From Octopus vulgaris (taxonomy: Eukaryota), in NCBI GenBank assembly GCA_951406725.2, contig OX597838.1, forward strand, positions 12,896,001 through 12,960,000: a stretch of 64,000 bases of DNA, in the 5' to 3' direction. The position numbers were made by a program, and so were the translations under genes. The notes under the pieces were generated by a model that saw only the letters and a list, made by a program, of their open reading frames with translations, was not told the DNA's origin and ran no database searches. Below are positions 12,622 to 44,275 of the stretch, piece by piece (the stretch's first letter is position 1; the number at the start of each line of letters is the position of its first letter).

Positions 12622-12780
12622 TAGTTAGTTAATCCAAACAAGAAAGCACAAAAAACACAACAACGCGAGGACGTGGAACAAATATAGTATTATTGGACGC
12701 TCAGGAAAGAAGGAGGGTTTAACGTTTCGAGCGGAGCTCTTCGTCGGAAACATAGGAGAAGGAAAGATCCAAGGGAAGAC
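12622..12780 (-). mobile_element. Penelope-LTR-like short element between (TA)n tracts with hammerhead-like motif
   Basis: Reverse complement of 44086-44275; motif at 12717-12751. Confidence 0.65.
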
Positions 12781-12791
12781 ATATATATATA

Positions 12792-13893
12792 TATCAGGTC
12801 ATCCCATAAGTCCAGTCCGAATTTTGAATAAAGAAAACAAGTGATCAAATGTTATATTCAATTGAAATTTAGTCATCAATGTACTTTTCCTGATTATCTA
12901 TGACTTCCTTCCATCAATTTACAAGCTTTTTAATCCCATCAATGTAAAACTCATTTGGTTTCAAAGCGAAGAAGTGTGAAATGTCAGTTTCGACATCCTC
13001 CTGACTTGCGAAAGTTATGTCCCCCAAATGATTTTGTAAGCTACGAAACAAATGGTAGTCTGAAGGAGCAAGGTCGGGAGAATAGGGTGGATGAGGAATT
13101 TTTTCCCAACCAAGCTCTTCGATCTTCTGTGATGTGATCTTTGCAGTGTGGGGTCGCGCATTGTCCTGATGAAACATCACTCCTTTTTGATTCACTAAAG
13201 CGGGTCTTTTCATCAAAGCTTGGTTCAAACGCTCTAATTGCTGACAGTAGACTTGAGCATTGATTGTTGCATTAGGTGGTAACAATTCAAAGTGAATTAT
13301 TCCTTTGCAATCCTACCAGAGAGAGAAGAACCTTTTCCCAATGAAGTTCCCTTCTCGGTTGTGGTTGAGCTTTTCCCCTTTTACCAAGCCACTGCTTACG
13401 ACGTTTAACATTTCGATAGAAGATCCATTTTTTGTCACCAGTCACAAGTCTATCCAAAAAAGTTGAAATGAATTTGCGAGAATAGAGAGAAGAGTAGATG
13501 TCAACTCGGGATTTGCGGTTGCTTTCAAACTTTTCATGAGGCACCCATTTTCCAAGTTTAGGAACCTTTCCAAGTTGTTGAAGATGACGACGAACAGTTG
13601 TATGGTTAGAATTAAGCTTTATTGCCAATTCTTCAACTGATAATGCAAGATTTTCTTCAAGTAATGCCTCAAGGAGCTTATCATCAAACTCAACTGGACG
13701 TCCTGTTCGATCTTCATCTTCAAGGCTGAAATCTCTACTTCTAAATTTTGCAAACCATCTTCTGCAAGTTCTTTCATTCAAGCATTCTTTACCATAAACT
13801 GAGTATATGTTTCGAGTCACTTCGGCTGCAGAGTTTCCTTTTTTTGTACCCATAAAGCATTATGTGCCTCAAATGCTGTTTGGATCCTTCCAT
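12792..13893 (-). pseudogene. decayed mariner (DD34D) transposon
   Basis: ATG at 13893 (MEGSKQHLRHIML), WVPH, TGD(K)KW, HQDNARPH and YSPDLAPSDYHLF motifs; frameshifts and an internal stop; original stop ~12869. One TIR-like end (tatcaggtcatcccataagt) at 12792; the other end is lost. Confidence 0.92.
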
Positions 13894-14409
13894 GTTAGAA
13901 AGGGTTTTGTATCAGGGGATCGATTCGCTCGACTAAAAAAATTCAAGGCGGTGCTCCAGCATGGCTGAAGTCTAATGACTGAAACTATATATAACTTTTT
14001 AAATCTTACTTGTTTCGGTTATCAGACTACGGCCATGCTGGGGCACCACCTTGAATTTTTTTGAGATCTTGCTCCTGCTTTTATTTTCCTTTATGCCCAC
14101 TTAAACATGGATGATCTGTTAGAACAAACTATACTGCAGTTATTACCATGGTAACTACCATAGTATAGTTTTGTCCCAACCAGGAAACTACGTTTAAGTC
14201 GCAAATAAATATTTTTCAACATTCTTACGTGTTTTTACTTGTTTCTAGACTTCTTGGTTTTGTATGTATCATAGCGTTGTTGTGCAAGTTGTGACGACAG
14301 GCATTAAATTTCAGCGCAGTCATTTTTGTTGACAGCCGTTGTCTTTAACTGACAGCATAAGATAATTTGCTATCTACAACTTGACAGTTACCATGTATGT
14401 GTGTGTGTG

Positions 14410-14476
<67 letters not shown>
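14410..14476. repeat. (AG)n microsatellite
   Basis: Directly visible. Confidence 0.95.
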
Positions 14477-14479
<3 letters not shown>

Positions 14480-14880
14480 CGAATAATTTTAAGCAGTGTT
14501 AAATAAATATCTTATTAGTAAGTTAAATGTGTTAACTTATTTCTGTTAATTGTTCCCTTCCCATCTTACTAACTTTCATTACTTTCGAGACAGTACTTCT
14601 TGCTACACCAAACATTTCGGCTGTTTTCGTTACGCTAGCGCCTGCCATACGAGCACCAACAATTTGACCTCTTTGAAAAGTCCGATAGATCTGTCATTTT
14701 AATGAAATTTAATAACCTTTTTTCTGATGATATCTGAAAAGAAACAGCAATTTTAGCAAAACATATTAAGCAACATCAATAATAGATTAAAAAAACCCAT
14801 AAAAATAAACAAAGCTTTTGACGGTTTTATTGATATTTCAAAATTATGATGCTAGGTGTTTCCATTATTATGTCCAATCC

Positions 14881-14919
<39 letters not shown>

Positions 14920-14921
<2 letters not shown>

Positions 14922-15122
14922 GCCATGTTGAATCGTTAGCTCCTGCACGCATTTTTTTTTCTCTCCTTGTTTCTTTTCTGTGTCCCTTTCTGTTGAAGAG
15001 CGTAGGCTCGAAACGTAAAAGACTTGTTTTATTTCTATTCCTGAGCGCCATACTAATACAATTGTTTGTTTGTACTCCACCTGCCTTCGTCTTTTGTTTA
15101 TTTTCGTAAACCTTCCCGTTAT
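14920..15122 (+). mobile_element. Penelope-LTR-like short element in (TA)n with hammerhead-like motif
   Basis: Flanked by (TA)n on both sides; same layout as 44086-44275; motif at 14986-15021. Confidence 0.6.
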
Positions 15123-16089
15123 ATATATATATATATATATACAATAAATTCAGGGTGAATACTTGATAAATGTAAGCACCTGTATATGCCAGCTAGTAGG
15201 TGATAGGGTATATGTATCAAAAGAAAAACAGGACGCATAGGATTTTGCGTACATATGTTTCGGGCTTATGCATTGATATAAGTTGTTCAATAAAGCCCGA
15301 AACATGTACCAAAATCCTTGCGTCCTGTTTTTCTACATATATACACACACTATTTTTCTCATGCTATCGAATAAACAATTGAATAGTAAAGTTGAGAGAG
15401 AGCAGTATAGTTTGTAGAAAGCTAATAAACAAGAATCACTGCCCCCTCTTGTTAAATACTAATTGAACTAAGACATCTTTCTTTGTAGTTATTTTTCTCT
15501 CTACTTTCGAAACAAATTTCAAACGTCCCGGGGTCGATTTGCTCGACTAGAGGCGGTGCTCCAGCAAGGCCGCAGTCAAATGACTGAAACAAGTAAAAGA
15601 GAAAAGTCTATTTATCACCCAAACACGTGAATATTGGATGCTGCCGCTGCTTTTCATAGTGAACGGTGTCGCAGTAAATTCCGTTCCAATTGAAATATTT
15701 GTCACACAGGCTTTATTCGGGCGCACGATCTCCTAGGAATATCATCCAAAAAAGAGAGAAAAAAAGCAAGAACATATTGAATAATGTAGTCCTCGCTTGA
15801 TACGTTCTCTCTCTGAGTAATAATAATAAAAGTAAACCTGTAGGTCGTGATTAGAATACTTTTGATCATAGATCTGCTTGATTAGAGCTAGCTTGTGGCT
15901 AAGCAAAAACTGCAACGATATTGCTACTTCCAACACTCCGATAAAGTTTAGCAATTCGCAATACGCATATATGTGCGTGTATATTAAAATTATATTGGGT
16001 ACTTACAAACACCCACACTTTCATACACACACACACACACAATATATATGAATGTATATATAAGTATACATTCGTATACATTCGATCCT

Positions 16090-16290
16090 TTTTCCAAGAA
16101 ATCTAATGCTCGTAGCTTAGTTTTTCCTTGGGGTTGGCCGGATCGGAGCAATCTCAAGATTAATCAGCCGAAATTGCAAGGATGATCCGGTTCTTGACTG
16201 AAGATTAGAGGCTTCGAATGACCCGTCCGTGCCTTTTGTATCGTCTATTTGAATGTTTTGCGTTCTTGTCCCATTTTGTATTTTTATATA
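16090..16290 (+). mobile_element. short (TA)n-associated dispersed element
   Basis: Reverse-complement homolog at 46350-46472 (gatgatc.ggttcttgactga.ga...ggcttcgaatg.cccgtcc). Confidence 0.6.
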
Positions 16291-16798
16291 TGTTTTGGAT
16301 CTTTTCTGTTTGATAAAGATCCTATATATTTTTTATACATATATATAAGTTACTGTGTTTAATGTAAAATTTTACAATTATTCATTAATTAAGCGTAATA
16401 AGTAAACGGTAGCTTCGTTTGAGGTGAAAGATAGCGGCAGAGTGGAAACAGTTGTAAATATATAGAGATAAAGGTAGGAAAGAGAGAGAGATAATAAATG
16501 TTGATAATGTGAAGGCTTGAAGGGGGAGGTTTTGTTGTGTCGCCGGTGTAACGTTGCTTTTAAAGAAACAAGGTAACTTTATATTTCAGTTCTCTTTATA
16601 CTGAAATTGTTACACCAACATAACTCACCAGCCCTTTGAAGGAGAAAAAAAAATAGGAACGACAAAATAAGAAAAGAAAAACCGCTACCCCAGTTTTTCT
16701 TTTCTGGAGCGCGCATCTGTTCAATTAACATGCTACATCCATTCATAAATGAATGTATATGCACACGTATTTTCCCACACTTTGTACCCAAGCATATA

Positions 16799-17180
16799 TA
16801 TTGACGCTAAATCTATACATTATAAATGTATACACACCTCCTTCTATATACAAGCATGCATGCTTATGCTGAACATATATATGTATGTAGACATATATAA
16901 ATACGTATATACACACGTTTTATTTTTACATCGTATTGACGCTAAATCTATACATTATAAATATATACACACCTACTTCTATATACAAGCATGCATGCTT
17001 ATGCTGAACATATATAAATACGTATATACACACGTTTTACTTTTACATTCGCATATATACTTACGTCGTAAATATAAATACACGAGTATTTCTGTATACG
17101 ACCATGCATGCTTATGCTAAATATATATATGTGTTTGGACATATATAAAAATATATATACTCACATGTATTCTTGTACAC
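16799..17180. repeat. ~135-bp tandem duplication (2 close copies plus 1 diverged)
   Basis: tattgacgctaaatctatacattataaat recurs at 16799 and 16934; gcatgcttatgct.aa occurs three times. Confidence 0.85.
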
Positions 17181-18039
17181 ACACACACATACATATGTCA
17201 CATATATGAATACGTACACGCACACTTGTTTCTACAAGCAACCACACACAGTCATGTTTAGCAAGCTTTGTCACTGGTAGTTAAGTGCTAGGTAATTTGT
17301 GGATGTTTTTTTGGCCGTATTTATTGGTTTACTTACAAGTGGAACATCAAGAAGAGTATATATACACACACACACAAATATATATGTATAATCTCACCTG
17401 GAGGAAAAAAATAATACAAGGAAAACTAATATAAGATACAGTTAATTAATCTATATAATTGAAAATAAATTAAAGAAAAAACAAACAACATAGAGAGAAA
17501 AGAAAAACGGACAACAATAACTCTAAATAACAATTGACGTTTGTTGTCATTGTGGAATCAATACAATTGTGAATTTCAAGCAGGGCTTTACGTATCCGGA
17601 GTTTGTACCATTTTGGGGGTGGTTAAAAAGACCAGCAGCAGGCTTTTAAAACGTTCGACAAACGTTCTCGTTCTTGCGGAACCATTCTTAATTATCATTA
17701 CTACCACCACCACCATCATCATCATCATTAACGTCACTACCACCACCACCAACATCATCATCATCACCATCATCAATATCATTATCAAACCTTTTGCCAG
17801 TCAGCTGCTTGCTCCCGCGTGCGTGTTTTTTTTTTCTAATCCCAACACGTTTGGGTTCCAATATTGATGCTGAATTACAAACAACGAGTCATGGAAGATT
17901 TAGGTAAATATAACGACCAGACTTCTTTTTTTTTTTTTAATAATTTTATTTCTAAGTCAATGAACATGTTTTTCTTAATGTTCCGCTAATGTGTGCCTCT
18001 ACAGACAAGATACTCCTCGGTCGAGCCAACGAGGGTAAC

Positions 18040-21000
18040 TTTATAATATCACCTCTCGACCTGCTAGAAATTGTTGCTAAATCTCTATCGAATTTTAAAC
18101 ATTTCTATTTATCTCCTACGTCAACTAATCAGTCGATATATAAATGACGGGTGGGTATACAATATAGTGGAGATTTATGTATTCAAATTTAAGAGATGAT
18201 TCACTCTGCTGTTACTCAGAGTTTCTCATTACATATGATCCAATCCTTCGTGCGACAAAATATGTGTGATTATGTGTACCTAATCCTCAACCGAAATTAA
18301 CTACACTACTCTAAATAATCATAGTTTATAGGAGGTAGTCCTTTAGGTACAACAAAACAACTGTGCCTGGTGGAATGATTTAAAAAAAATATATGTTGGT
18401 TTTTAAAATAACAATTATAATTTCTTTAATTTCATGCATTAATTTGTTGTCTTTCGAGTCTCGTCTCTCTTCTTTCTACCCCATAGAGATAAATGCATGG
18501 ATTAACGTGCTTGCTTTTACAGACACTGCTATTAACTAGGATTTTCTGTCGTGTCAACGAGTATACCTTTATATAGTCGCTCAAGCTACTAGAAACAACA
18601 ACCAAATCTACATAAAAACCCCCCCAAAAAACCCTCTACCATTTTTTAGAAGGTGGGACACATTAGATTTATACTGTCCTAATACAAATAGACTGAATGG
18701 TTACGGCTGGAATGTCTTTAATTCTAGGCCTGCTCAATCAGAAGCTGATTTGGAGGTTCTTACTACTAACTTAATATTAGTAATAGTATTTCTGTTTACA
18801 GCATATTTTCTTTTGTATTTTTTTTATTCGTCTTTTATTTTTCTTTATTATAACAAAGTTTTGTCTTCATAAAATACACTTTAGACTTTTTCTTTGGTTA
18901 GAATATCGACGTCAGACACACACACACACATATATAAATTTGTTTTTATTCATAATGCTCTGTGAAAGCACACTTATAGAAAACACACCTTTAAACACGC
19001 ACCTACCTATATCTAAGCCACTTTTTTTTTAACCACAGTATATCTATGTCAAGATTACAATAAGTCCATGTCATGATAAAAAAAAAAATTCTCAGGAGGG
19101 CAATTCACTCTCGTCGTTTCTACGATTTTGTTAGTGTTTTCACAGCAATGAAAAAGCCGGCGTGTTTGTCTTTTGAAGAAAAATATATTTGTGGTAGAAA
19201 TTTCTTTGACAATATCACATTTAGTCGAGAACAGAAAAGGAACATCTCTCACAAAAAAAAAAAACCAGTTAAATATATTAGTACATATTGGTAAATTTAC
19301 GTGCAAATTTAGAGATATAGATGTAGCTTTTTAGCCCTAAGTCAGAGCTAACTGTGCAGATCTATAATCAAAAGGGTTCCGACCATGACCACGTTTTGTC
19401 TTTTTGCATACCCAGGCTTGCCATCGTTTAATACATCCTACCCTTTTCTCAAATAGACCGAGGTCAGTCCTAGTCGAGCAGACTTATAAAAGGTGTGTTT
19501 CAACCACAACGATTTTATTATTTCTGGGGTTACACTTAGGACTATATTAATAATTGTGTCCTTTCCTTATTTAAAACGGTGGGGTGTGATTTGAAGGCAG
19601 TGCTACAGCATGGCCTAAACCCTGACAGCAAGTATATGCACACACACACAGATAAATGCAGCAAGATATAGGTTTAGCCACCCGTTTATAGACGTGTTTG
19701 TCACAAGTAGTTACACATGGATTATTTGTCTCGCTTTCGGGAGATAATACTGATTCCTCGAATTGTTGATATCTGGCTCATTCCATATATCTGTAGTTAT
19801 ATCTCCTCTATTAGCTATTTACCTAGATCTTTATCCACTATCTGGGTTCTCATCTATCTAGCAAAGCAATCATCTGTCTCTTTATTTATTTTATTTACAT
19901 ATTTATATATACATGTGTGAAAACCTGTGTGCATGCAGTAAATAATACCACATAAATAAATACATCACATGTATTTATGCAGTGTCTTGTTGACGGACTT
20001 CAAACTTTGCTAACGACTCTTTTTTCCAATAGTTGAGTTTTCTTAACCTTTTGTCGAATGCATGGTGGGTCTAAGGTCGGAAGAATAAGTTTAATTACGT
20101 CTCTCGTTTACTTTTTGATTTTTTAAACACAGTCTTAGGAAACAAGTAAGATATGAGAAAACAGTAACTGGAAATGAAGGCGCTTTTGCTGTAACGCAGT
20201 CGTTCGATCTGGTTGGAAATGGTAAAAATTCTCCCTCAAAATACACCCTCCTCTCTTTAAAAACGGGCGAACATTATTTAATGTAGTTCTATATAATATA
20301 AGATGGGGTGATCATTGTTTGACTGTTCTTTTTGGTTATGTCTGTGCTAGATCGGTATTGACCTAGAGTTGAATGAACATCAATAGCTAAAAATCAATCA
20401 GAACATGTTAAGACCCATATTCATAAATCGTCGTTTTGTTGTTTAGCCCCTAATCAGTCCTGGTCGACCAGAGATATTGTCAAATGAATTATCGTCGTGA
20501 CCACCTCGAATATTTTTCTATGTGCAGGGAACTTAGTACCACCACATACACTTTAAAGATGGTAATGTGTGATTTAAGGCAAATTTGGCTACTGTTTCTA
20601 GTAGTTCGAGCGACTACGTACGTAGATATCAAAATAAAGTAGTGCTCTAGCCTAGCCTTACTCTTCAATGCTAAAACAAACTATTTGTGTTGTTATTGTT
20701 TAGCCCAAAGCGGCAAGCTGCCCAAATCGTTAGCGCTTTGGACAAAATGCTTAGCGGTATTTCTTCTGGCTATTTACGTTCTGAGTTCAAATTTTACCTT
20801 TCATCCTTTCGGTGTTGTGTACTAGGGTTGATGTAATCAACTAACCGTTTCCCCCTAAAAGTAGCTGGTTTTGTGCCAAAATTTGCAACCATTGTTGTTC
20901 AGTTCAGCCCCAGGTCAACTTTCATCGGGAAACCTATGATCAATAGTTTTCCAACCATGGCCGTCCTGATTTTTTGTGAGGTATTAGGAAGGGCGAGGTT

Positions 21001-21650
21001 TTGGAATAGCTGTCAATCGAAGTTCCACACTTGATGGAGGAAGGAAAGAGGAAGCATTTCTGTTTTTTTGTTTCTCTTGTAAAATATTCCTGTATTTCAG
21101 ACAACGGAAATTACGATTTTGGAAAAAAAAAAAATTTCTTCCGAAAATTTTATTTTCGCTTTTTCTACATTTTTTGTCCCCATCCATTTCCATAACCTTT
21201 ACCCTTTTCCTAACAGCTCGTGCGACCACATAGAAGTCCCCTCGTTGGTTTACGGATCCACCGAGATGTTGTCGTTTTAGCCCTAGGTCTCTATTTTGAC
21301 GGAGCAAACCTTTGATGCAATGTATTTCAGTAGCGACCATCCCGCTCTTTTTCTGGTGGTGAAAGTATCTACAACAACGACATCTAATGTGCCCTTCTTT
21401 TTTGTCTGACAGCGTTTCCTGCAGCTGGGGCGAACACTTAGAGGTTTTTTCGTTGGCTCACCACCAACCGGTCTTGTTAATGTCAAAGTATTCCAGAGAG
21501 GACCATCCCGTCCTTCTTTTGGTGATTGTGTGATATCGACTACGTTATCTAATACGTCTATTCCTTTGTTTTTATAAAAATGCGCAATGAGATTTGAGAA
21601 AGGCTTGGTTGTTGTTTCTAGCATGTCGCTTGACCATGTAGAGGCTCTCT
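18040..21650. repeat. cluster of old family D repeats (ctagaaatagcagccaaatctccctcaaatcacacc...gacctggggctaaacaacaac)
   Basis: Diverged copies on both strands near 18050, 18570, 19330, 20190, 20435, 20895 and 21270; also at 5970, 8280, 15800, 31080, 36885 and 51340. Confidence 0.65.
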
Positions 21651-22103
21651 CTTTACTTGCTTGTCACCTATTTTGTTCCCAAAGGTTAACAATATTCTAT
21701 TTCTAAGATTGCCCTCCATGCCAATACATTTGATTGTTACTCATTTAAGAAGAACCCAGCACAAAGACGGTTTTTTTTAATTGAATGAAAGCGAAGGGGA
21801 GAGGGATTAGATATTCAGCATCGCAGACCATAATAATGAGGGCTTCAAATTTTGGCGCAAGACCAGCAGTTTCGGGGGAAGGGCTAAGCTAAGTAGATTA
21901 CATCGACCCCATCGCTCTACTGGTACTTATTTTATCGACCCCGAAAGGTTGAACGATAAAGTCGATTTCGGCGGAAATTGAACTCGGGACGTAAAGACGA
22001 CGAACGAAATGCCGCCAAGCATTTAATAATAATTTCAAATTTTGGTACAAGGCCATGAATTTCGGGGGAGTGGGTACGTCGATTACATCGAGTCCAGTGC
22101 TTA

Positions 22104-22525
22104 ACTCTTTTTACTCTCTTTTACTCTTTTACTTGTTTCAGTCATTTAACTGCGGCCATGCTGGAGCACCGCCTTTAGTCGAACAAATCAACCCCGGGAC
22201 TTATTCTTTGTAAGCCCAGTACTTATTCTATCGGTCTCTTTTGCCGAACCGCTAAGTGACGGGGACGTAAACACACCAGCATCGGTTGTCAAACAATGCT
22301 GGGGGGACAAACACAGACACACAAACACACATACATAAACATATATATATATACATATATACGACAGGCTTCTTTCAGTTTCCGTCTACCAAATCCACTC
22401 ACAAGGCATTGGTCGGCCCGGGGCTATAGCAGAAGACACTTGCCCATGTTGCCACGCAGTGGGACTGAACCCGGAACCATGTGGTTGGTTAGCAAGCTAC
22501 TTACCACACAGCCACTCTTGCGCCT
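22104..22525 (-). mobile_element. SINE family A nested among family B copies
   Basis: Full-length reverse match; family B sequence on both sides (21845-22100, 22530-22620). Confidence 0.9.
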
Positions 22526-23018
22526 GGCACGTTTTTTTTTTTATCGTCTGCGAAAGGATGAAAGGCAAAGTCGACATCGCTAGGCACTTTGATCGGCAAT
22601 GCTAACGATTCTGCCAGCTTGTCATTGCACCGGCCTCAATAAACTAAAACTACTGCACTTGTTTGTATTAAGTGTTTCGTCTTCCGATCGTTATTTTAAC
22701 TTGTGTGCGTGTCTGCGTGTGTTTTGTTTCAGTCTTTGGCAGAATTTCGGAGGAGGGAGTAAGTCGATTTACATTGATCAGTGGTACTTATTTTATCGAC
22801 CCTAACGCATTTGGACTCAGAACAATTAAGTTTTTTTCCAGAATATCCTATGTATAAATAAAAATCTTGTTTACATAGCTCTGAATTTCTGTGTGTGTGT
22901 ATGAGAGAGAGACAGAGAGAGATTGACATATATATATATATATATAAAGCATATTACTCTACCACTGGTATTTGAGTACTCTTTTTTCCACCTTGTTTCA
23001 CATTTATGTGTTTACTCC

Positions 23019-23064
<46 letters not shown>

Positions 23065-23739
23065 AGTAATTGAATGAATTATCTTATTAAGGATAATTCG
23101 AAAGATAACCGATACCTGGGTAGCAAATTCACATCAGAAAGAACACGGTTGAAGCTACGTCCCTAGGGCATAGACTACGTGTCTTCGTGCATAATGTACT
23201 CCTTATTCCTTCGGAATTAGGAATATGCAGCCTTCGAAACATATGTCGAGAATAAAGGATATTTGTTAACTAGTCGTTCAACTCCATTCTTTCATATACT
23301 TATAATTTAAAAATATATATATATATATATATATATTGACCGATAGATTAGACAGTATAGATTAAACATACATAAAGGGAAAGCATGTAACAGATGATCG
23401 AAACGGCTGTTTGAGGGTGAGCATTTTGTCCTGTAGAGACAGAGAGAGAAAGATCCTGATTCAACAAAACATGATGAATTATTCCGGATCTATTGTTGTT
23501 CAGAAATTATCATCATTGTTATTAATTATTCAGTTGTTATCAGGTTAACCAGTTAGTTGTTCTCATTGGTATCTCTATATGAGTATATGTTACCATTGTA
23601 TGTGTGGGTGCGCATGTGTACTTGATAAGAAGTGGTTTCGTAGGACTTGTTCCGTTGCATTCTTTGAATTCAACAGAACTAGACTTGTACAAGGCACTTA
23701 TCATTAAACATGTCCAAATAGCCTCTACTTGATATCATT

Positions 23740-23932
23740 CTTTTCTACACAAGGCCCGAAATTTTGAGGGAAGGGGGCCAGTCGATTAGATCGACCCCAG
23801 TACGCAACTGCTACTTAATTTATCGACTCCCAAAAGGATGGAAGGCAAAGTCGACCTCGGCGGAATTTGATCTTAATACGTAATGACAGACGAAATACTG
23901 GCGTGCTAACGTTTCTGTCAGCTCGCCGCCTT
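23740..23932 (-). mobile_element. SINE family B with TSD
   Basis: TSD tctacttgatat at 23724-23735 and 23933-23944. Confidence 0.85.
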
Positions 23933-27015: not shown

Positions 27016-27062
27016 ATGGTTAAATGGCTTAAAATCAAGATTGAGAAGGAGCCTCCACTATA

Positions 27063-32699: not shown

Positions 32700-32813
32700 T
32701 GTTAAAAGTCGCCAATAGTCGATTAGTTTAATTGGTTTTGTGGGTACTGGATAGGTGGGGGCTTATATGGCGCTTGTGTGACCCCTTTCTCAAATGGATT
32801 CAACCAGGTAAGT
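32700..32813 (+). promoter_or_regulatory. candidate promoter / first exon with strong splice donor
   Basis: CCAAT/ATTGG boxes, YY1-like atggcg, ATG at 32794 and consensus donor CAG|GTAAGT (GT at 32808). No downstream exon confirmed. Confidence 0.3.
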
Positions 32814-33228
32814 GTTTGCTAGTTTGTTAGATTGTCTGGGTGTGGTGAAGACACGGTCTAGAAATTTCGTACGCGTGCTTATATCTTTTTTTTTTCTTTT
32901 TTGTGGGGAAGGGTAATTCTCTCACCTCTTCTCTGTAACAGCTGTTCGTTCCGTCCTCGCTAAGTGAGCAAGCAACAGTACCTCTCGCGTGGAACGCACA
33001 TATGTCTCCTTGTGGAGAAAAATCTTCAACTTAGCTTTGGTACAGAAGTTTTCGGTTTACTGTTTTCTTTTGTTGCTTTTGTGAGGGGTGTTTTTTCTTC
33101 TTCTCCAAAACGAAAGTGTAGCTTTTACGATGCTATTTTGGTTAAGTTATAAACGTGAAAGGTCACCACAAATTTTATGTTATTTAATATGGCGAAGGTG
33201 CTGAGCTAGCAGAGTTTTTAGCACACCG

Positions 33229-33633
33229 GGATCTTTTCGGTTTGAACGGCAGTTTTTAAAAATAATTTCCACGTAACTAAACACTTTTAAACTTCGTATA
33301 CGGGTAGAATGTGTTTATAAAACATCTTTTTCTCTTGGCTTTATTGAGAAAATTCCATAAGTTTGTAAGATATTTTTTTTTTTTTTCTGCAATTTCAACC
33401 AATCAATAACGTCTATTGAGGTGAAAACATTCTGTGCCGTATGAATATGTCCCTCGTTTAAGAAACAGATTGGGTTTATTTACATTTCTGAAGAAAAAAA
33501 ACACCATTCCCCCCACCCCTAACTAACCCTAAAACAGATTGAAATGCAATAGATCGATACTAGGATCATAATTATGGGTGACAATTTCATATGACACCGC
33601 TAGAAAAAACTGCCGTTCAAACCGAAAAGATCC
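33229..33633. mobile_element. Merlin-like MITE (family 1)
   Basis: ~29-bp TIR ggatcttttcggtttgaacggcagttttt; 8-bp TSD gcacaccg (33221-33228, 33634-33641). Confidence 0.85.
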
Positions 33634-33651
33634 GCACACCGGAGTGTGAAA

Positions 33652-33950
33652 GCACGTGGCTTAGTGGTTAGTGTATTTGGCTCGTTAGGTCGTGTGTTCG
33701 GTTCCCAGCAGTACGTTGTATCTTTGAGTAAGACCCTTTATTTCTCGAAGCTCCAGTCGCTCAGCTGTCAAAATTGAGTTATCTGCATTTCAAAGAGTCA
33801 GCTTCGTCACATTCTGTATCACGCTAAATCTCCCTGAGATTAAGGGTACGTATACCTGTGGGGTGCTCAATCACTTGCACGTTAATTTCACGAGTAGGCT
33901 GTTTTGTTGATCGGATCAACTGGAACCCTCGTCGTCATAACCGACAGAGT
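33652..33950 (+). mobile_element. tRNA-derived SINE, distinct family E
   Basis: A-box tggcttagtgg and B-box-like gttcggttccc, followed by a central domain (cacttgcacgttaatttcacgag...tggaaccctcgtcgtc). A tail fragment also occurs near 32590. Confidence 0.7.
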
Positions 33951-33984
33951 TAATACATCGTATGCTCGAAATAAGGAGTAGAAG

Positions 33985-34370
33985 GACAGCCAACAATCCT
34001 TGATCTTACCACTCTTTCAAATACTTTAATGATGTGGAAGGTGAGTGAGATTGGGCGATAGTTGACTGCGAGGGATGTTTCCCTGTTTGAAAACCGGGAT
34101 GACAGACTGGGATAGGAGCTGTTTCGGTATATAACCTGAGGTTGGTCAGAGGGACTGCAAGTTGGTGTCTGCATTCCTTCAGGAGACTACCCGTGAATCT
34201 ATCAGGGCCTACAGCAGAATAGTATTTGACTTCATTTATTGCTGCTATGATGTCTGAAGCAGTGAAGGTTATGTCCGAGATTTTATGTTGGGAATCAACT
34301 TCGTTCGTTTCTCTCACGCCAATATCAGTGGGATCACTAAACACAGAGCAGTATTGTTTCTGCAGTAACA
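33985..34370 (-). mobile_element. CR1/L2-group LINE ORF2 fragment
   Basis: Minus frames give SAVGPDRF..LLKEC and AVNYRPISLTFHIIKVFERVVRSRI (start of the RT domain), frameshifted. Confidence 0.85.
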
Positions 34371-34728
34371 ATTCCTGGGACCACGCCTGATGCTTTTTTA
34401 AGAATAATGAAATTGTACTTTACAAAAGTACAGAGTAACCCACCAGATTACTCTATGACTAGTTTCATAGAGTAATCTGATGGGTTACTCTGTACTTTTG
34501 TAGAAAATAAGCATCAGGCGTGGTCCCAGGGATTTTTCGAAGAGAGGCCACAAGGTCAGACGGGAATACAATTCCAGAAGAAAAAGGCGTAATAGCATTA
34601 CTTAGAAGAGCGCACTTCTTTTCTTGAGGCGGACACGTGCCCCTCAGCTCCCCACCCCTTTGGGTGCGCCCCTGAGAATATTATTGACGGTGACGACGGT
34701 TTATCTAGCCGAAACTTCGTAGTACTCT

Positions 34729-35035
34729 CAGGAGTGGCTGTGTGGTAAGTAGCTTGCTTACCAACCACATGGTTCCGGGTTCAGTCCCACTGCGTGACAA
34801 CTCGGGCAAGTATAGTGTCTTCTACTATAGCCTTGGGCCTTGTGAGTGAATTTGGTAGACGGAAACTGAAAGAAGCCTATTACATGTGAGTGTGTGTGTG
34901 TGCGTGCGAGTATATGTTTGTGTGTCTGTATTTGCCCCTCCAGCATCGCTTGACAGCCGATGCTGGTGAGTTTACGTCCCCCGTAACTTAGCGGTTCGGC
35001 AAAAGAGTCCGATAGACTAAGTACTAGGCTTACAA
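34729..35035 (+). mobile_element. SINE family A, 3'-truncated
   Basis: Match ends after gcttacaa. Confidence 0.85.
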
Positions 35036-35696
35036 GGTTTGTTAGTGTTCACGAATTTATTGTGAGGAAGCAACAAAAATGCTTACGAGAAAAAGTGACA
35101 CACGCTGACACGTGTGTAATGATACTATAAACGTCTGTTTTGGCAGATTAATATTAATATATTCATTGTAGAAAGGGAGGGTTTGTAGTATTTGTCTATT
35201 GTGTGTTTGTGTGTGTGTGTGTGTATTACAACTTGTCCTGACAAATCTGGCTGAAGAAGAAAAAAATCCAGTCATACATGTTTTGGTCTGTTGTAAGTCA
35301 CGTTTTTGTAGTCGTTGATGATGTCTTGATGGTGACGGTAGTGTAGATTCAAGCCAACGTTATTTGAGTACACCGACGCATTCACACACCACGCTGGGGG
35401 TTCGACCTACTGACATATTCAGTATTTCGGATAAAACGTGTTCCGTTCTCTGTTTAGTTAATGAGAACGTTACATGCAGCCGCGTAACCCTCGGTCAGCT
35501 GTGCTTAATAAACTCTTTGCTTATCCAAAACATTTTCATAAATCTGTCCAAAACATCCGTGCTTGTTAGCCTTTGCTTTACACGTTCTGAGTAATATAAT
35601 AAGTCTTTCGTTTCATGAGTCACAAGTTACTCTGTTGGTTGGAAAAATTGAAAATGTGTATCATGTGTTGTGCATGGACGCCAGGGAATTATGTTC

Positions 35697-36129
35697 TATG
35701 TATCTCATGTGATACACAGGATAGACAAAGGGTTATTTGAAATATACGATTTAAAAAATTATATTGAGTACTAACTGAAATACATAAGGGTCTCTTAATT
35801 ATAACCCTTTACCTATCCAAAGCATTCTCATATGTATCTCATGTGATACACAGGATAGACAAAGGGTTATTTGGAATATACGATTTAAAAAATTATATTG
35901 AGTACTAACTGAAATACATAAGGGTCTCTTGGCGATCTTTCGTCTCTAGTAGAAATTTTTTTTTACATATGGGCTTGCGGGAACTTTTGAAGTAATATAC
36001 ATACATATACACATACACCGAGTAAAAAATTTCAGTTATCTCTTTCTTTCACACATTACTCTGTCTCTTCACACACACTAACAGAAGCACTTCACTTACA
36101 CAACATACTGTCTGTCTCCCACACCCCAT

Positions 36130-36167
<38 letters not shown>

Positions 36168-36385
36168 CATCAATGCTTCCCATGCACGGTAACTTCAAAA
36201 GAACTTCCCTCGTCATACAATCGCTTTCTCTTAGTCTCTTTCGCTCTCATTACTTCAAAAGTTCCCGCAAGCCCATATGTAAAAAAAAATAAAATTTTTT
36301 TACGGAAATCGACGGAAAGGTCTACTAGAGACGAAAGATTGCCGGTCTCTTAATTATAACCCTTTACTTATCCAAAGCATTCTCA
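35697..36385. repeat. 134-bp tandem duplication, second unit interrupted by a MITE
   Basis: Unit 1 is 35697-35830; unit 2 is 35831-35930 plus 36352-36385. Confidence 0.9.
35931..36343. mobile_element. Merlin-like MITE (family 2)
   Basis: TIR ggc(g/a)atctttcgtctctagtaga; 8-bp TSD ggtctctt (35923-35930, 36344-36351); ~40-bp subterminal inverted repeats. Confidence 0.88.
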
Positions 36386-37001
36386 TATTGTTAAGCCCTA
36401 AACGTCTATGCTTGTTTTCAGACTTAGCCCTTGTCCTGCACCTGACACGCTAGCGTTGCTTGAAGTGGGGGTGACAGTGAGTTGTCCGCCCCGGGAAGCA
36501 CTTTTAAAGTGGAGGCATTTTTAGATCTGCTGTAGGCAATGTTTTTGTGGGGTCCGGGGGTGGCACACACTCTAGCTACGCTGGTGACAGGAGAGGCAAA
36601 GGTTTAAACAAATACTATGCTTTAAAAAGCGTCCCGGTCGTAGCAAACTCCATTTTTATTCAGATAAAAACAGTAATAGCAATTTCGGGAGCCTCTACGT
36701 CAGTGATGGCAAATCTTTTTTATGAAGGCATTTAATAACTGAATGGAGGAGGAATGCAGTGTTAGTTGGGACTTAGCATGTTTCGAGCTTGTTAGGCCTC
36801 GTCAGCGAAGCAAAGTGTCAGTTGTACTTAATCGAACCTAGATTACATGGCGGCAGAAAATGATAGTGACATACAAGTCATCGAGGGAGCTTCTACGTGG
36901 TCACTTCACCTGTTAGAAATAGCAGGCAGATCTCCAAACAACACAAATCCCATCATCTTAACAGAAAGAAATAACACCTATCATATAGTCCTAGATACTT
37001 G

Positions 37002-37046
<45 letters not shown>

Positions 37047-37524
37047 CAAAATAAAACGATTCTTCCACTTCAAAATTCCTCTCTCCGGGGGTGGTCATGG
37101 CTGAAATGAATTTGATACATTTGCTCAATCGAGTTTGACCTGGTGTTAAACAACATAACACATCTACCCGATCAGGGCTGATCTGAGGCACTACAAAAAT
37201 CACAATAACAGCAAATTCGTTTGTTTCATCTGATATTTCCTCTCTCTCTCCTTTATTCCCACTCTTGTCTCTTATTTAATATTCATTGTGTCACGTTGAC
37301 AAACTATCTCACCCATTCTTACTCCATTGTACTCATATCTGGAGCTGTTTCTAAACAATCATATTTTTATTTGATTTAGAATAAGAACAACAAATGCCAA
37401 GAAATTTCTCGGTCTACGGCGGTTGTCTTCTGACACTTGGTCTTCATTTGCATATTAAAGCGGGCGCGGGCGTGTACACATACATACATATGTATATACA
37501 CACATACGTTTACATGTGTGTGTT

Positions 37525-37882
37525 TTAAAAATGGGGAAGGCCTGTTTATGGGATCACCCAGGGTTTCCGTCCGTAAAGGGTTTAGCTTTATGGCATATCG
37601 TCTGACCACAAAACCGTAGGCCAACATAAGGCGGCGAGCTGGCAGAATCGTTAGCACGCCGGGCGAAATGCGTAGCCGTATTTCGTCTGCCGCTACGTTC
37701 TGAGTTCAAATTCCGCTGAGGTAAATTAAATAAGTACCAGTTAGCACGGGTCGATATTGATTAATCCGTTTGTCTGTCCTTGTTACCCTGGGTAGTAAAG
37801 AAATAGATACGCCATAAAGCTAAACCTTTTATGGACGGAAACCCAGGGTAATCCTATAAACCGGCTTTCCCCCCGTTTTTAA
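37525..37882. mobile_element. MITE/foldback with ~75-bp TIRs containing a family B SINE
   Basis: 37527-37600 is the reverse complement of 37806-37880; SINE B at 37628-37805 lies inside. Confidence 0.8.
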
Positions 37883-38532
37883 TATATATACCGCTCTACA
37901 TCTTAGAGTGTGCTTCACTGGATCTATGTGTTCTGCAAGCGATATGTGTGTGTGTGTTTGTGTGTGTGTGTATGCATCTGAGTGCGCGCTCGCGAGCTGT
38001 TATTTCTTGCAGATTAACCAACTACGTAAGAGGCTGTCATTGAAGACGGTGACAGAATCCATTCAGTACTGCATCAATAAAGTATTTGGTTGATTTAATC
38101 CCACCACCAATATTGCAACCCGACCTCGTGTCACATTTATCATTCAATTGGTTTACATTCTTTCTTTTTTCTCTCTTCTTCCTTTCTCTTTCTTTCTTTT
38201 CCTTTTTTCCCTCCTCCTCCCCTTCCTCTTCCTCTCATCATCATCATCGACGTCGTCGTAAAAACTCGAATTGATGGCAATAACATTAAACAAGGATTGG
38301 TCCTAACTCGATCGTTCACCGTCAGCAGCAGCAGCAGTCGTAACCGGATCTGGTTTGGCTGGTTTCTTGTTCGTCGGCATCCATTACAATATCTTCACTG
38401 ATGAGAATTTTACGTGGATTGGTTGATATTTACTATCCTTGTGTATATCATTATAATGTATGTCACCAAAAAGTCGGTCCAAGGATCTTAGTCTTAATAT
38501 AATTGCGTTCACATCTAGAATGCTTTTATAAG

Positions 38533-38728
38533 ACTGTTTTACTGTTTTACTTGTTTCAGTCATTTGACTGCGGCCATGCTGGAGCACCGCCTTTAATCGA
38601 GCAAATCGACCCTGGGACTTATTCTTTGTAAGCCCAGCACTTATTCTATCGGTCTCTTTTGCCGAACCGCTAAGTGACGGGGACGTAAACACACCAGCAT
38701 TGGTTGTCAAGCAATGCTAGGGGGACAA

Positions 38729-38780
<52 letters not shown>

Positions 38781-38938
38781 GACGGGCTTCTTTCAGTTTC
38801 CGTCTACCAAATCCACTCACAAGGCTTTGGTCGGCCCGGGGCTATAGCAGAAGACACTTGCCCAAGATGCCACGCAGTGGGACTGAACCCGGAACAATGT
38901 GGTTGGGAAGCAAGCTTCTTACCACACAGCCACGCCTG
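38533..38938 (-). mobile_element. SINE family A
   Basis: Full-length reverse match. Confidence 0.9.
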
Positions 38939-39229
38939 TTATCCAAATATGTTATATTTTTATGTGGCTGTATATTGCATTCTAGTAATATTAAATAATG
39001 GTATAAATAGTAACTTTGATCCAAAGGATATAACTCAGTTTTGATTTATTAAAATTAATTTTTGTTTTATTTACTTGAAAATCCAAACTTATTTATTAAG
39101 CATTTCAGCTTATGTTTGCATTTAATTTTTCTTTCATCCTGAGCATTAAGCGATGTTGTTTTAGCCATAAAATCTCCATGAATTCGTGAGTACACAACAG
39201 ACAGAACTTATTCCCTATTCTATATGAAT

Positions 39230-39880
39230 TCATCATCTTCATCATCGTTTAACGTCCGTTTTCAATGCTAGCATGGGTTGGACGATTTGACTGAGATCTG
39301 GCGAACCAGATGGCTGCACCAGACTCCAATCTGATCTGGCAGAGTTTCTACAGCTGGATACCCTTCCTAACGCTAACCACTCCGAGAGAGTAGTGGGTGC
39401 TTTTTCGTGTCACCGGCACGAGGGCCAGTCAGGCTGTACTGGCAACAGTCACTCTCAAATGGTGCGTTTTATGTGCCACCTGCACAGGAGCCAGTCCAGC
39501 GGCACTGGCAATGAACCTCGCTCGAATGCTTTTTCATGTGCCACCAGCACAAGTGCCAGTAAGGCAACGCAGGTAATGATCACGCTCGAATGGTTTTTTT
39601 ACATGCCACTGGCGTGGAGGCCAGCTTGTTGCTCTGGCAACAATCTCACTTGTATGGTACTCTTAGTGTTCCACTAGCACGGATGCCAGTCATCGAATTT
39701 GATTTCGATTTCGCTTGCCTCAACAGGTCTTCGCAAGCAGAGTTTAGTGTCCAATAAAGGAAAGGTACGCATAAGTGGGCTGGTTACACATCTGGCATAG
39801 CTCACAAGGTTATGGTCTCATTTGAGCTTGCCGAGTCTTCTCATGCACAACATATTTCCAAAGGTCCCAGTCACTAGTCA
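39230..39880 (-). mobile_element. family C, longest copy (RTE-like 3' UTR with internal tandem sub-repeats)
   Basis: (CAT) tail, ~5 units of tgcttttt.cgtgccacc.gcac...ctggcaac, then additional unique LINE-like sequence. Confidence 0.8.
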
Positions 39881-40463
39881 TAACGGACAAATATCCCACT
39901 ACTACAATCACCATCACCACTCAAAATATTAATGAAATTTTCCCCCTCCATTCCCGTTATTAACAAAACGACAGAAGAGTTTTGTATCGGTGTAATTCTT
40001 CTTTCTTCACCATGGTGTTGGACAAGTTTAAAAGAATTAAAAAAAAAGAAAAAAACTTAATTTGTTTTCTTGATTAGATGGTCTGCTACTTTTGAATGGT
40101 CTCCTCTCTATGGAGGTATTGAAGCCAGATCAAAAGGTGTAGATTTAATGGCACCGGATATAATAATCCGCGGTGTTTCAATTAGCTTGGTGCCGATCTT
40201 AATTGTATGAGGAAAACTATGTGAATACTGTATGGAACTACATGAATATTGAATGTGTATGGACGCCATTTTGAACACTGAATAATCAAAATCAGATTAA
40301 AATATGATTGGTCATTGAGCTAATGTTTTCTTCTCACCGCATAAATATTATTAATTCATTAGATTTTTCCGTTTGTCTCTCTCTGATTGCACTGGCTACT
40401 CAAAGCAAGACGATAATATATGGATGACGAGAATGCCATAATTTTTGTGCTCTCTCTCTCTCT

Positions 40464-40495
<32 letters not shown>

Positions 40496-40672
40496 GATAA
40501 AATCTTTCTCTCTCTCCAATTGCGCCCACTACTAAATGAGATGGTAGAACGCTTGCTTAGCATGCAAGTGGTATAAGGATCATTATTCGGATTCTCCAGG
40601 TACATAGATTTTGTTTTTGTAGTACACGTGACCATTGTATGCAATAGACTCATTATTATTAGAAAATCCCTT

Positions 40673-41280
40673 AAGGTGGCGTGCTGACAGAATCGTAAAC
40701 ATACCGGGTAAAATGTTTAGTGACAGTTGTTCTAAGTTCAAATTCCGTCAAGGTCGACTTCGCTTCTCATCCTTTCGGGGGTCGATGAAATGAGTATTAG
40801 TGAAGTATTGGTGGGGAAGCGATGAAATCGACTTTATCCCTCCCCCAAAATTTCACGTCTTGTCCCTATAATAGAAAGGATTATTAGGAAATGCCTTAAG
40901 GCGGCGTGGTAGCAGAATCGTCAGCACACCAGACAAAATACTTTGCAGCTTTCTTTCTGGTTCTACAATCTGAGTTCAAATGCCACCGAGGTCGAGTTTG
41001 CTTTTTATCCTTTCAGATTCGATAAAGTACCAGTTGAGCACTTGCGAGGATTTAATCGACTTGTCCCTTCCCTTAAAAGTACTGACCTTGGGTCAAAAAT
41101 AGAATAATTAGAAAATTCCTTGCGGTATTTGTTATTTTACTGTGTATGCGTGTTCTTAGTTCACATCCAGCCGAGGTTGTTAATTTTGCCTTTCATCTTC
41201 CCCGGAGTCGATAAAAGAAAACGTACTTGTCGAATATGAAATCGATTTAATGAACAAACCTCTCCTCCCGAATTCCAGGC
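40673..41280 (+). mobile_element. three tandem diverged family B SINEs
   Basis: Repeated aagg(t/c)ggcgtg..cagaatcgt heads and gttcaaat.cc..c.aggtcga cores. Confidence 0.7.
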
Positions 41281-42288
41281 CTTATTACTAACACGAAATG
41301 TAATAGGAGTTGAGAGATGTCAGCCGTCTCAAACGACCAGTTGACATATGCAGAAATTGTTAGATTGTTAATACAGCTATAAGTGATGAAATTGGTGCGT
41401 GTAAGGGATTGTTAATGAAACTACGCCAGTGACGAAAATCGTGTGTGTACGTGTGTGATTTTGTCGGATTGAAGTCTTTAAGTTAATGTAACATTTCAAA
41501 TCCAGATTTAGGTTATGTTGTTAGTATAAATGACAGTGTGAATGCGCGATGTGATTTTACTATAGTCATTATTATTATTATTTTTCTTTTTCTGCTGCTG
41601 ACCTTTTGACGATATTTTTACTTCAAACTACTTTACTTTTTGTCTTTCTAAATTATAGTCTTTCACCAAAGCAATCTCTTCTGACCTTGTCTTGATAAAT
41701 CGACTTAAAACATGAGCAAGCATAGTTTAAAAAAAGTAAAAGGGAAATATTTGCAATAACAACATGTATATCCCAGTATCTTTCGTTTTATTGAAATAGT
41801 TCTTTACTCTTACGAATAAAGGTTAACTTTGTTGATTTGTTTTATGAATTTGGTCGGGGAATTATGTTCTTTTTTATGAGATGGCGGGGAAATTATTATT
41901 TTAATGAACGGACGAAATTCGTTCCTTCTCTTTTATTTTTTCTTTCTTCCCTGTGTTTTCGATTTTTCGTTTTTGTGTGTCTTGTCCTGTCTTCACTTAA
42001 ATTCCATTCACATCCTTGGATGCTGCACAGGAATATAAAATGGTTCCAGGCTTTCAATGGTCGTTTATTTTATCGACTCTGCAGAGATGAAAGGTAGAGT
42101 TCACCTCTGAGGGATTTGAACTCAGAACTAAAAGGGTCGTAATTAATACCGAGCGGCATTTTATTTTTGTTTGCTGCTCTAACGATTCGGAAAATCAAAG
42201 AAAATGCTTTTTCTTTTGATATTCCTGTGGCATATTAAAAATTCAAGTATTCTGCGTATCGGAACAGGGTCGGACTATCTTTCAACAT

Positions 42289-42507
42289 AAGGTGGCGAGC
42301 TGGCAGAATCGTTGTTAGCACGCCGGACAAAATGCATCTCAGTATTTCGTTCGTCTTTACGTTCTGAGTTCAAAATTTCGCCGAGGTCGTCTTTGTTTTT
42401 CACCTTTCGGGGTCGATAAAATAAGTACCAGCTGAGCACTGGGGTCGATGTAATGAGCTTACTCCCTTCCTCAAAATTGCTGGCCTTGTGCCAGAATTTA
42501 AAACCAT

Positions 42508-42508
<1 letters not shown>
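42289..42508 (+). mobile_element. SINE family B
   Basis: aaggtggcgagctggcagaatc head plus core. Confidence 0.85.
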
Positions 42509-42584
<76 letters not shown>

Positions 42585-42585
42585 A

Positions 42586-42632
42586 AAAACTGTCCGATGA
42601 ACGGCAACGGGAAACTCAGAGTAACAGGTTTT
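42586..42632 (+). ncRNA. type-I hammerhead ribozyme-like motif (U4C core)
   Basis: CUGU-CCGAUGA-aCG(gcaa)CGg-GAA-ACUC(a)GAGU-A-ACAG; AATAAA ~25 nt downstream. Confidence 0.55.
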
Positions 42633-42888
42633 GTTGAATTTTCTGCTGCTTTAAATAAAGCATATTACTCTACCACTGGTATTTGAGTACTCTTTTTTCC
42701 ACCTTGTTTCACATTTATGTGTTTACTCCGGTACATACATATATATATCACGGAAATGTACTTGCATAGCAAGTGACCTGATATGAGATCTTGTGATGGA
42801 ACAAAAACAATTGCAGCATGGAATGTGTTTATAAGCCATTTAAGAAACACAAAAACTGTTAGACTCACTTCAACATTTAAATTTAATT

Positions 42889-42935
42889 TTTCAAAATATT
42901 TTCGTTGCTTTGAAACTGCGACCTGTTCACTGACA
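42889..42935 (-). ncRNA. minimal hammerhead-like motif with G3-C8 core
   Basis: UGUCA-GUGAACA-g-GUCGC(9 nt)GCAAC-GAA-AAUAUU-U-UGAAA. Confidence 0.5.
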
Positions 42936-42956
42936 TAATTCTGTGCAGCCAAAATC

Positions 42957-43005
42957 TTGTCAGTGAACAGGTCACGGTCTCAAATCGAGGAAAATATTTT
43001 AGCAA
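42957..43005 (+). ncRNA. minimal hammerhead-like motif with G3-C8 core (inverted partner)
   Basis: UUGUCA-GUGAACA-g-GUCAC(9 nt)UCGAG-GAA-AAUAUU-U-UAGCAA; helices more decayed than in the partner. Confidence 0.4.
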
Positions 43006-43020
43006 ATTAAATTCAAATGA

Positions 43021-43389
43021 CTAGCACTATGACCCGGCAACGCCGGGTCATAGTGCTAGTGCGCATGCATATACAGCTGCGTGTGTGCGCATATATGCGC
43101 TGAGTACTGTCCAAATCTCTGACCAATCATATACAGCTAGCTGGTATTCAATTGGAGTATCAAGTTTCGGGCATTTTTGGGTTTTGGATAGAAAATTCAC
43201 AAAAAAGTCACTTCTATTAATTTTTTTAATGGCTTTGCAGGATGACTGGGGAAATGTAAAGATGTGCACGACCACCCTTGGATGGTTTTGAATGACCATA
43301 GAAAATTCGAGCCTTCTAACTGAAAAATTGTGGATTTGTATAAAGGATACACACACAGACAGGCATTTTGCTGTTTATATATATAGAGA
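43021..43389 (-). mobile_element. non-autonomous Helitron inserted in one arm of a foldback
   Basis: Minus strand starts TCtctatatatataaac and ends with a hairpin plus CTAG; lies between A43020 and T43390; no TSD. Confidence 0.85.
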
Positions 43390-43478
43390 TGAAGTGAATC
43401 TAACGGTTTTTTGTGTGTTTCTTAAATGGCTCATAAACACCTTCCACGCTGCAATTGTTTTTATATATATTTTTCTTT

Positions 43479-43516
<38 letters not shown>

Positions 43517-44016
43517 CACACATACGCATGTGCGCCTGTGTGTGTGTATTTTGTTTTTAACTGATGGACATGAAATAGATAATGGTATGAATAATAGCGT
43601 GGAAGTATTAGGTTAAAAACCCCCAATATTTACAGCTCATTATTCATTCTTTATCAAATTCGAATTCAGCCACTAAAAACGAATTATTTCATGTTTATAA
43701 TTTCTAATGATGTAGCCAGCCGCCACATACACAAGCGAACATATATTGTTCCTCGAATAGCGAAAGTAGAATAGAATAATGTTTTATTGAAACTGAGAAA
43801 ACTTTAGAAACTCTTACTCAAAGTTTCATGTAATCAATCATGTAATCAATCATCAGACACCCCTGAGTATTTTAAACAATATGATGCTTTATAAATGTTT
43901 ATTGACATTTATAAACTAATCATGAGATTGAAAATACTCAAGAGTGTCTGCTGATCATTTACATGAAACTTTGAGTAAACATTTCTGAAAGTTTTTGCAG
44001 CTTCGATAAAATACTA

Positions 44017-44065
<49 letters not shown>

Positions 44066-44085
44066 ACCGCGTGTGTACTGTTGGC

Positions 44086-44275
44086 GATTTTTTTTTTCCC
44101 TCCATCTTCCCTTCTTTGGATCTTTCCTTTTCTTATGTTCCTGACGAAGAGTTCCGCTCGAAACGTTAAACCCTCCTTCTCCCCTTCCTTCCTGAACGTC
44201 CAATAATACTATATTTGTTCCACGTCCTCGCGTTGTTGTATTTTCTCTTTGTGTTTTCATGTTTGGATTAACTAT
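44086..44275 (+). mobile_element. Penelope-LTR-like short element between microsatellites with hammerhead-like motif
   Basis: Motif 44137-44171 GUUC-CUGACGA-a-GAGU(ucc)GCUC-GAA-ACGU-U-AAAC; homolog at 12622-12780. Confidence 0.65.

Follow-up and report, generated by a model that had tools for sequence, protein, structure and literature searches.

We analysed a stretch of 64,000 nucleotides of the Octopus vulgaris genome (assembly GCA_951406725.2, contig OX597838.1, positions 12,896,001 to 12,960,000 of the forward strand), hereafter the window, and focused on three short repeats, A, B and C, each of which carries a minimal hammerhead ribozyme motif. An earlier interpretation made from the letters of the window (the sequence-only reading) had described them as related elements of about 200 bp, either solo long terminal repeats (LTRs) or retrozyme-like mobile ribozymes. 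Comparison with genomic copies instead identified A and B as 5'-truncated 3' termini of protein-coding Penelope-like elements (PLEs) of the Neptune type. The features are listed below, where U4C and A6U denote substitutions at core positions 4 and 6, and the cut positions of A, B and C are predicted via hammerhead numbering.

12623..12781 (-): element A, a stub (pseudo-LTR, pLTR) from the 3' end of the U4C PLE lineage, 5'-truncated and flanked by TA-rich tracts
12717..12751 (-): motif of A, minimal type I hammerhead with U4C core, predicted cut after 12721
14884..14919 (no strand): (TA)18 tract, target sequence on the 5' side of B
14921..15119 (+): element B, a 5'-truncated 3' end of the A6U PLE lineage, with (TA)n on both sides
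14986..15021 (+): motif of B, minimal type I hammerhead with A6U core, predicted cut after 15017
44017..44048 (no strand): (AT)16 tract, target sequence upstream of C
44062..44273 (+): element C, a short non-coding derivative of the A lineage with a 219-nt unit and canonical core
44137..44171 (+): motif of C, minimal type I hammerhead with CUGACGA core, predicted cut after 44167

Re-reading the window confirmed the three motifs, letter by letter, where they had been placed. The cores start at 12747 (-) in A, 14990 (+) in B and 44141 (+) in C. All three motifs have a 4-bp helix I and no loop 3 (the minimal type). In each, A9 is followed by an additional A, positions 15.1-16.1 read ACGU, and position 17 is not G. 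The motif of C also has a private mismatch in helix I and a U-G pair in helix II. A relaxed minimal-hammerhead descriptor matched A and B in the window and missed C because of the helix I mismatch; each of 30 Markov-1 resamples gave 0 matches, so the motifs are not chance occurrences. Rfam reported no hammerhead at gathering score in the window, and none at E<=10 over 12500-15500.

Each of the three elements lies within or beside a (TA)n tract, and the ACGU palindrome would form helix III only in a dimer. Both of these earlier proposals were upheld. The lengths are about 160, 200 and 212 bp for A, B and C. We found 85% identity between A and C over 179 nt, whereas the alignment of B with A is confined to the 34-nt motif (E 0.13). 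This indicates that the window elements fall into two lineages, A/C and B. The covariation claimed for the helices is thin: in helix I a single compensatory change separates the two lineages (1 parsimony step at each of two positions), and helix II is essentially invariant. No open reading frame (ORF) within the window belongs to A, B or C.

Origin in Neptune-type Penelope-like elements

In copies of B and of C the 3' end is fixed and leads into (TA)n, and the 5' ends are ragged. The fixed 3' ends lie 102 nt (B) and 106 nt (C) past the predicted cut site. A one-sided tail of 30-40 nt was absent from these ends; 72/79 B ends and 55/59 A/C ends pass straight into TA. Copies nested in each other's TA tails, tail-to-tail or head-to-tail, were found at five loci (L002, L011, L020, L024 and L063). 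Every insertion of these families seems to offer a new target.

Several B copies remain alike far upstream, through a 3' untranslated region (UTR) of several hundred bases and into frames for reverse transcriptase (RT) and a GIY-YIG endonuclease (EN) (L061-L066). Among four broken B-lineage frames, Pfam matched RVT_1 in one (E 3e-7) and gave no match in two. The motif stands at the 3' end of the coding frames; no fetched B copy had a 5' repeat, and none of the 20 fetched was a full-length copy with two repeats. L066 also holds, upstream of its B-lineage element (at 1-837), a different kind of GIY-YIG-like frame, which scored under the Pfam cut-off (E 5e-4).

For the A/C lineage, the upstream sequence was supplied by one C-like copy, and a search with it returned 30 loci. 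Three of nine extended loci reach an RT and GIY-YIG frame, and a fourth reaches its last 54 residues. A shares diagnostic letters with long-UTR copies (L070-L098), which lead to such frames in L101, L104 and L107. The 3' UTR of this U4C lineage is CA-rich and extends up to about 3 kb. The best A-lineage protein is 57% identical to the B-lineage protein over 439 aa.

The coding elements have a single frame with RT and, at the C terminus, a GIY-YIG domain with CCHH, as expected of endonuclease-bearing (EN+) PLEs. In both lineages a C-x4-C-x2-C linker lies upstream of GIY-YIG, as in the CX2-5CxxC of Neptune/Nematis. Because copies of A and B extend into these frames, both can be identified as truncated 3' ends of coding PLEs, and the solo-LTR proposal was abandoned. 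We refer to the window elements as Neptune-type on the basis of features that Nematis shares.

Furthermore, a search with the A-lineage endonuclease revealed a very young sister family. It has an uninterrupted frame of 1008-1009 codons in 8/12 fetched stretches and a unit of about 6.2 kb, and each of the two end repeats carries the motif. Its protein matched Pfam RVT_1 (E 0.002) and GIY-YIG (E 0.015) below the cut-offs, and 470 homologues have an RVT_1/PF26215 make-up, with GIY-YIG in part of them. We examined 52 young loci picked for long open frames, four of which could not be mapped. One 3' end, 94 nt past the predicted cut site, is shared by 45/48 mapped loci, and 24/48 extend beyond the upstream motif. 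The variable 5' truncation with a fixed 3' end and the partial tandems are likewise those of EN+ PLEs. At L189-L191 (G000:C10:97.80-97.83 Mb) this family has no fewer than three full 6.2-kb units arrayed head to tail.

Core variants as lineage states and conservation of the core

Of the three, only C has a core of the known form (CUGANGA, or its U3-A8 variant, with GAAA), since the A lineage carries U4C and the B lineage A6U. To place these changes, we counted exact patterns across the 2.8-Gb genome (G000). The pattern of stem II plus GAAAC had 42,487 matches, compared with 1 for the reversed control. Among motifs with a 4-nt loop, U6 outnumbered A6 (21,705 vs 473; control 0), and among those with a 3-nt loop C4 outnumbered U4 (9,802 vs 5,535; control 0). 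Among 46 distinct B-lineage loci chosen by their EN protein, U6 was found in 38/38 with a readable 3' motif. U4C was found in 47/48 mapped young loci. L198, a full-length young copy whose two repeats both have the canonical U4 and whose frame is intact, is a natural revertant. Taken together, the counts and loci identify U4C and A6U as fixed lineage states rather than decay, which answers the earlier question of whether they are fixed or sporadic. The sequence-only reading's description of one deviation per copy is correct as such, but only that of C is sporadic (its family majority has GUUU). Both substitutions occurred in the same copy once among 30 pattern-selected loci.

We also built a tree of 75 of 159 termini without positions 3-9, with a midpoint root and unsettled bootstrap support. 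The A6U copies are arranged as a ladder of subfamilies, with repeated changes at N7. The A6 copies within this ladder have the same N7 letter as neighbouring U6 copies and resemble reversions of single copies. Canonical cores also occur on deeper branches, in rows picked by a pattern that fixes A6. The U4 of subfamily C, which clusters with the U4C copies, may therefore have arisen by CpG reversion. The direction from canonical to variant would follow from this in-genome tree, whose root is only a midpoint. In runs of organisms A, B and C, all alternative N7 letters were listed and there was no position-6 row; the table also omits a known N17 variant, so this is only a hint that A6U is shared.

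To assess conservation within families, we compared non-CpG sites after dropping subfamily-diagnostic columns. The core differed in 5/324 cells and the flank in 96/5061 (1.5% vs 1.9%; 36 C copies), and in 3/320 against 49/4274 (0.9% vs 1.15%; 32 B copies). Within families the core therefore decays neutrally, at the flank rate.

Between lineages the result was different. We collected 46 elements in 24 clusters with a profile of the downstream sequence alone, blind to the core. The 11 core positions were 0.90 conserved compared with 0.76 downstream (p 0.004). N7 took all four letters, and N17 was U, A or C (10, 9 and 5) but never G. A9.1 was present in 23/24 clusters and CG at 15.2/16.2 in 20/24, as in minimal PLE hammerheads. 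Across eight subfamily majorities, the 11 core columns needed two steps (U4 and A6), or 0.18 per column, compared with 0.94 downstream (p 0.0006), and N7 and N17 needed three parsimony steps each. C3, G5, G8, A9, G12-A15.1 and U16.1 are unchanged between the lineages. The possibility that the core is no better conserved than its flanks, raised earlier as a refuting outcome, is thus borne out within families and contradicted between lineages.

A probable slowed ribozyme and the alternatives

We consider it probable that all three repeats come from the 3' ends of Neptune-type PLEs, truncated on the 5' side and inserted in TA microsatellites, and that their hammerhead is a slowed, protein-assisted ribozyme still under selection in the active lineages. 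The element endonuclease would nick (TA)n, and RT would begin internally, at one fixed position downstream of the motif, usually dropping off after 150-250 nt and leaving stubs. U4C and A6U lie in the uridine turn and would make cutting slower, leaving most RNA whole for translation and copying. Occasional cutting, with two motifs paired via ACGU or held by the element protein, would yield unit-length RNA, which could close to a circle or be re-primed. The origin and the lineage fixation can be read from the copies, whereas cleavage, dimer and circle are what we infer. The stubs of the window have no tandem partner motif and are predicted to be inert.

The end repeats of the young family bear on repeated copying. 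For 19/23 two-motif insertions (four with a short or unmapped 5' repeat were left out), repeats within an insertion differed by 0.26 letters per 419 columns, compared with 2.5-2.6 for repeats of different insertions (permutation p<1e-4). Of the variants confined to a single insertion, 4/9 were present in both of its repeats, as were 9/21 in a longer window (16 insertions). Such near-identical pairs fit an RT that copies one template more than once, whether round a circle or by jumping back along that RNA, a mechanism proposed by Cervera and de la Pena in 2014 (PMC4209133). A bolder version of the ribozyme account is that two PLE lineages independently detuned the uridine turn and kept the catalytic residues, as slow, protein-triggered cutting and re-joining makes circular RNA that is copied more than one round, with the paired repeats of young U4C insertions as its trace. 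We regard this version as speculative and rather unlikely.

Several observations weigh against a selected ribozyme. The lineages are few and related, so that the conservation test is based on about eight subfamilies in two clades, and some loci were selected by patterns that fix part of the motif. Conservation in a downstream window of 35 columns comes close to that in the motif window (0.82 vs 0.84). Helix I covaries through a single event, and helix II does not covary. The young-family 5' ends are scattered between about 2.3 kb upstream and 1.9 kb downstream of the upstream cut site, and at 48 loci none was at the cut site itself (nearest -21 and +125; 24/48 run through). The identity of paired repeats could also stem from unsampled homogeneous masters, gene conversion or assembly polishing. 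ViennaRNA placed the double-hammerhead fold 11-23 kcal/mol above the free co-fold in six copies, and helix I of the young family contains a U-U mismatch. In addition, single mutants of the CUGA uridine turn, which includes U4 and A6, are described as having low activity (PMC9901934), and hammerhead mutants of PAc, a PLE of Anolis, are reported to insert normally in vitro (PMC11167929).

These observations leave room for an alternative with the same PLE origin, in which the motif does not cut and is a hairpin bound by the RT/EN protein to find its RNA and start site, leaving U4 and A6 free to change. This would explain why the uridine turn changed twice independently in those lineages that are most abundant and youngest, why no 5' ends lie at the cut site, and why PAc catalytic mutants insert in vitro. 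The monomer fold agrees with it: helix II has a hairpin probability of 0.55-1.0, helix I reaches 0-0.6, and the core pairs with ACGU. However, the pattern of constraint is that of a catalyst, with N7 free, N17 never G at the subfamily level, and the residues listed above fixed. The alternative hairpin register also differs between the two lineages, and free positions 4 and 6 sit poorly with the single copy that combines U4C and A6U. We hold the hairpin to be the main alternative, although an unlikely one.

Two other candidates for the constraint, both judged by consensus sequences, were rejected. A splice acceptor (pyrimidine tract) had no supporting joint, and both it and a Pol III B-box (stem II 3' arm) leave the free N7 and the non-G17 unexplained. 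Contigs of runs X2 and X6 span the repeat-to-ORF junction without joints; contigs cannot show RNA ends. One template-switch-like loose end in X6 lies at 14990, away from the cut site, which speaks neither way.

An account in line with the sequence-only reading, in which solo-LTR or retrozyme-like non-coding mobile ribozymes travel as small circles and one mutation has damaged each copy in the window, now appears very improbable, and for A and B it is largely refuted by their extension into protein-coding PLEs and by the lineage-wide U4C and A6U. Its best case is the C family, which is short and non-coding, with a canonical core, a 219-nt unit and one tandem trimer; retrozymes themselves have been argued to be non-autonomous PLE derivatives (10.64898/2026.07.22.740005). 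We found that 34/35 distinct canonical-core copies match the long parent to no more than 91 nt upstream of G8; 30 of the 35 were selected with a query that extends 76 nt upstream, which leaves the upper limit as the informative part. The C-type head-to-tail junction had five matches at four loci genome-wide, compared with the 5,535 canonical motifs with a 3-nt loop. Because such tandems are almost absent, we classify C as a short, non-autonomous, non-coding PLE derivative with a hard 5' limit rather than a retrozyme array. The architecture that had been ascribed to PLEs and retrozymes together is therefore retained for the minimal hammerhead of PLEs and rejected for retrozymes, whose hammerheads are described as canonical type I (PMC7229834).

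The least probable explanation is neutral baggage, conserved between lineages through recent shared ancestry and pattern-based sampling: the within-family decay and the conserved downstream window agree with it, but the downstream-only profile set gave the same result, position by position according to hammerhead rules, and flank columns change 5-6 times more on the tree.

The three window copies themselves are ordinary dead stubs. Their relatives matter for the role of the hammerhead in PLE transposition, since it is kept across animals and yet insertion in vitro is reported to be independent of it (PMC11167929). The octopus genome holds a natural allelic series on one scaffold (canonical, U4C, and A6U with all four N7 letters) as well as young intact U4C elements, which would make this role directly testable here. 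If A6U cuts, the natural hammerhead core would be extended, and strict CUGANGA searches would miss most copies in this genome, where exact matches comprise about 31,500 variant and about 6,000 canonical cores.

Neighbouring features and known systems

Directly past the TA tail of B, at 15146-15340, there are two head-to-head stubs of a third hammerhead-bearing family, whose arms end at different points. Their relatives (L264, L235, L056 and L060) have a canonical CUGAAGA core, a long helix II insert and a longer palindrome. Other, unrelated hammerhead-like motifs with canonical cores and different stems were observed in L191 (at 2251) and L152 (-, about 2531 on the reversed strand). Between A and B, two overlapping frames at 12914-13859 (-) belong to a broken transposase, which its motifs suggest to be mariner-like. 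The window also contains a hairpin from two inverted ends of a common short repeat (13945-14052), a long GTA/GTG-rich tandem region with a 160-bp duplication (9769-11341), and an (AC)171 tract (48323-48664). A full-length 5S rRNA match (61008-61126, +; 95.8 bits) is a gene or a 5S-derived repeat.

The architecture of the window motifs, including the extra A and the palindrome, is already published for minimal PLE hammerheads (PMC4209133). The shared features described there are the missing loop 3, palindromic 15.2-16.2, an extra base between 9 and 10.1, G10.1-C11.1, a short helix I, a U-rich upstream sequence, and mostly single dispersed copies from truncated PLEs. In contrast, helix II is only 4 bp in the octopus motifs, and the rows examined in Fig. 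S3 of that study have CUGANGA or U3-A8 cores, none with U4C or A6U. No cephalopod is named in the one file of that study that was searched. The coding elements match the features described for Neptune/Nematis EN+ PLEs (Craig et al. 2021, PMC8557442), and differ in the ~3-kb CA-rich 3' UTR of the U4C lineage and in their variant cores.

PAc, which belongs to the Poseidon clade (Frangieh et al. 2024, PMC11167929), likewise has an AT-rich target and no RNA ends seen at the cut site. Its RT is reported to start internally, 85-92 nt past the cut site, compared with about 94-106 nt for the octopus 3' ends. The PAc motif overlaps the ORF start and cleaves only with protein, whereas the octopus motif lies in non-coding sequence, carries U4C or A6U and is known by its sequence alone. 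Subfamily C resembles animal non-LTR retrozymes in being short, non-coding, hammerhead-bearing and PLE-derived (PMC7229834; 10.64898/2026.07.22.740005), and differs in its minimal motif, its monomeric insertions and its few tandem loci.

Natural core variants are described by Perreault et al. (2011, PMC3088659), among them a U4C viroid variant with enough activity in vivo and an A6C phage variant with low but detectable slow cutting. Those are rare single cases, whereas the octopus genome has about 10,000 U4C and 22,000 A6U copies. The A6U mentioned in PMC11662667 is a twister position. In an octopus repeat annotation, 31 PLE families are given as recently active, and its main text contains neither the word hammerhead nor ribozyme (PMC13282606). 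Our search, which included the Octopus and cephalopod PLE literature and left most subscription papers and some supplements outside, found no published report of U4C or A6U in PLE hammerheads. This analysis adds U4C in young intact elements, the comparison of two lineages, and the identity test of paired repeats.

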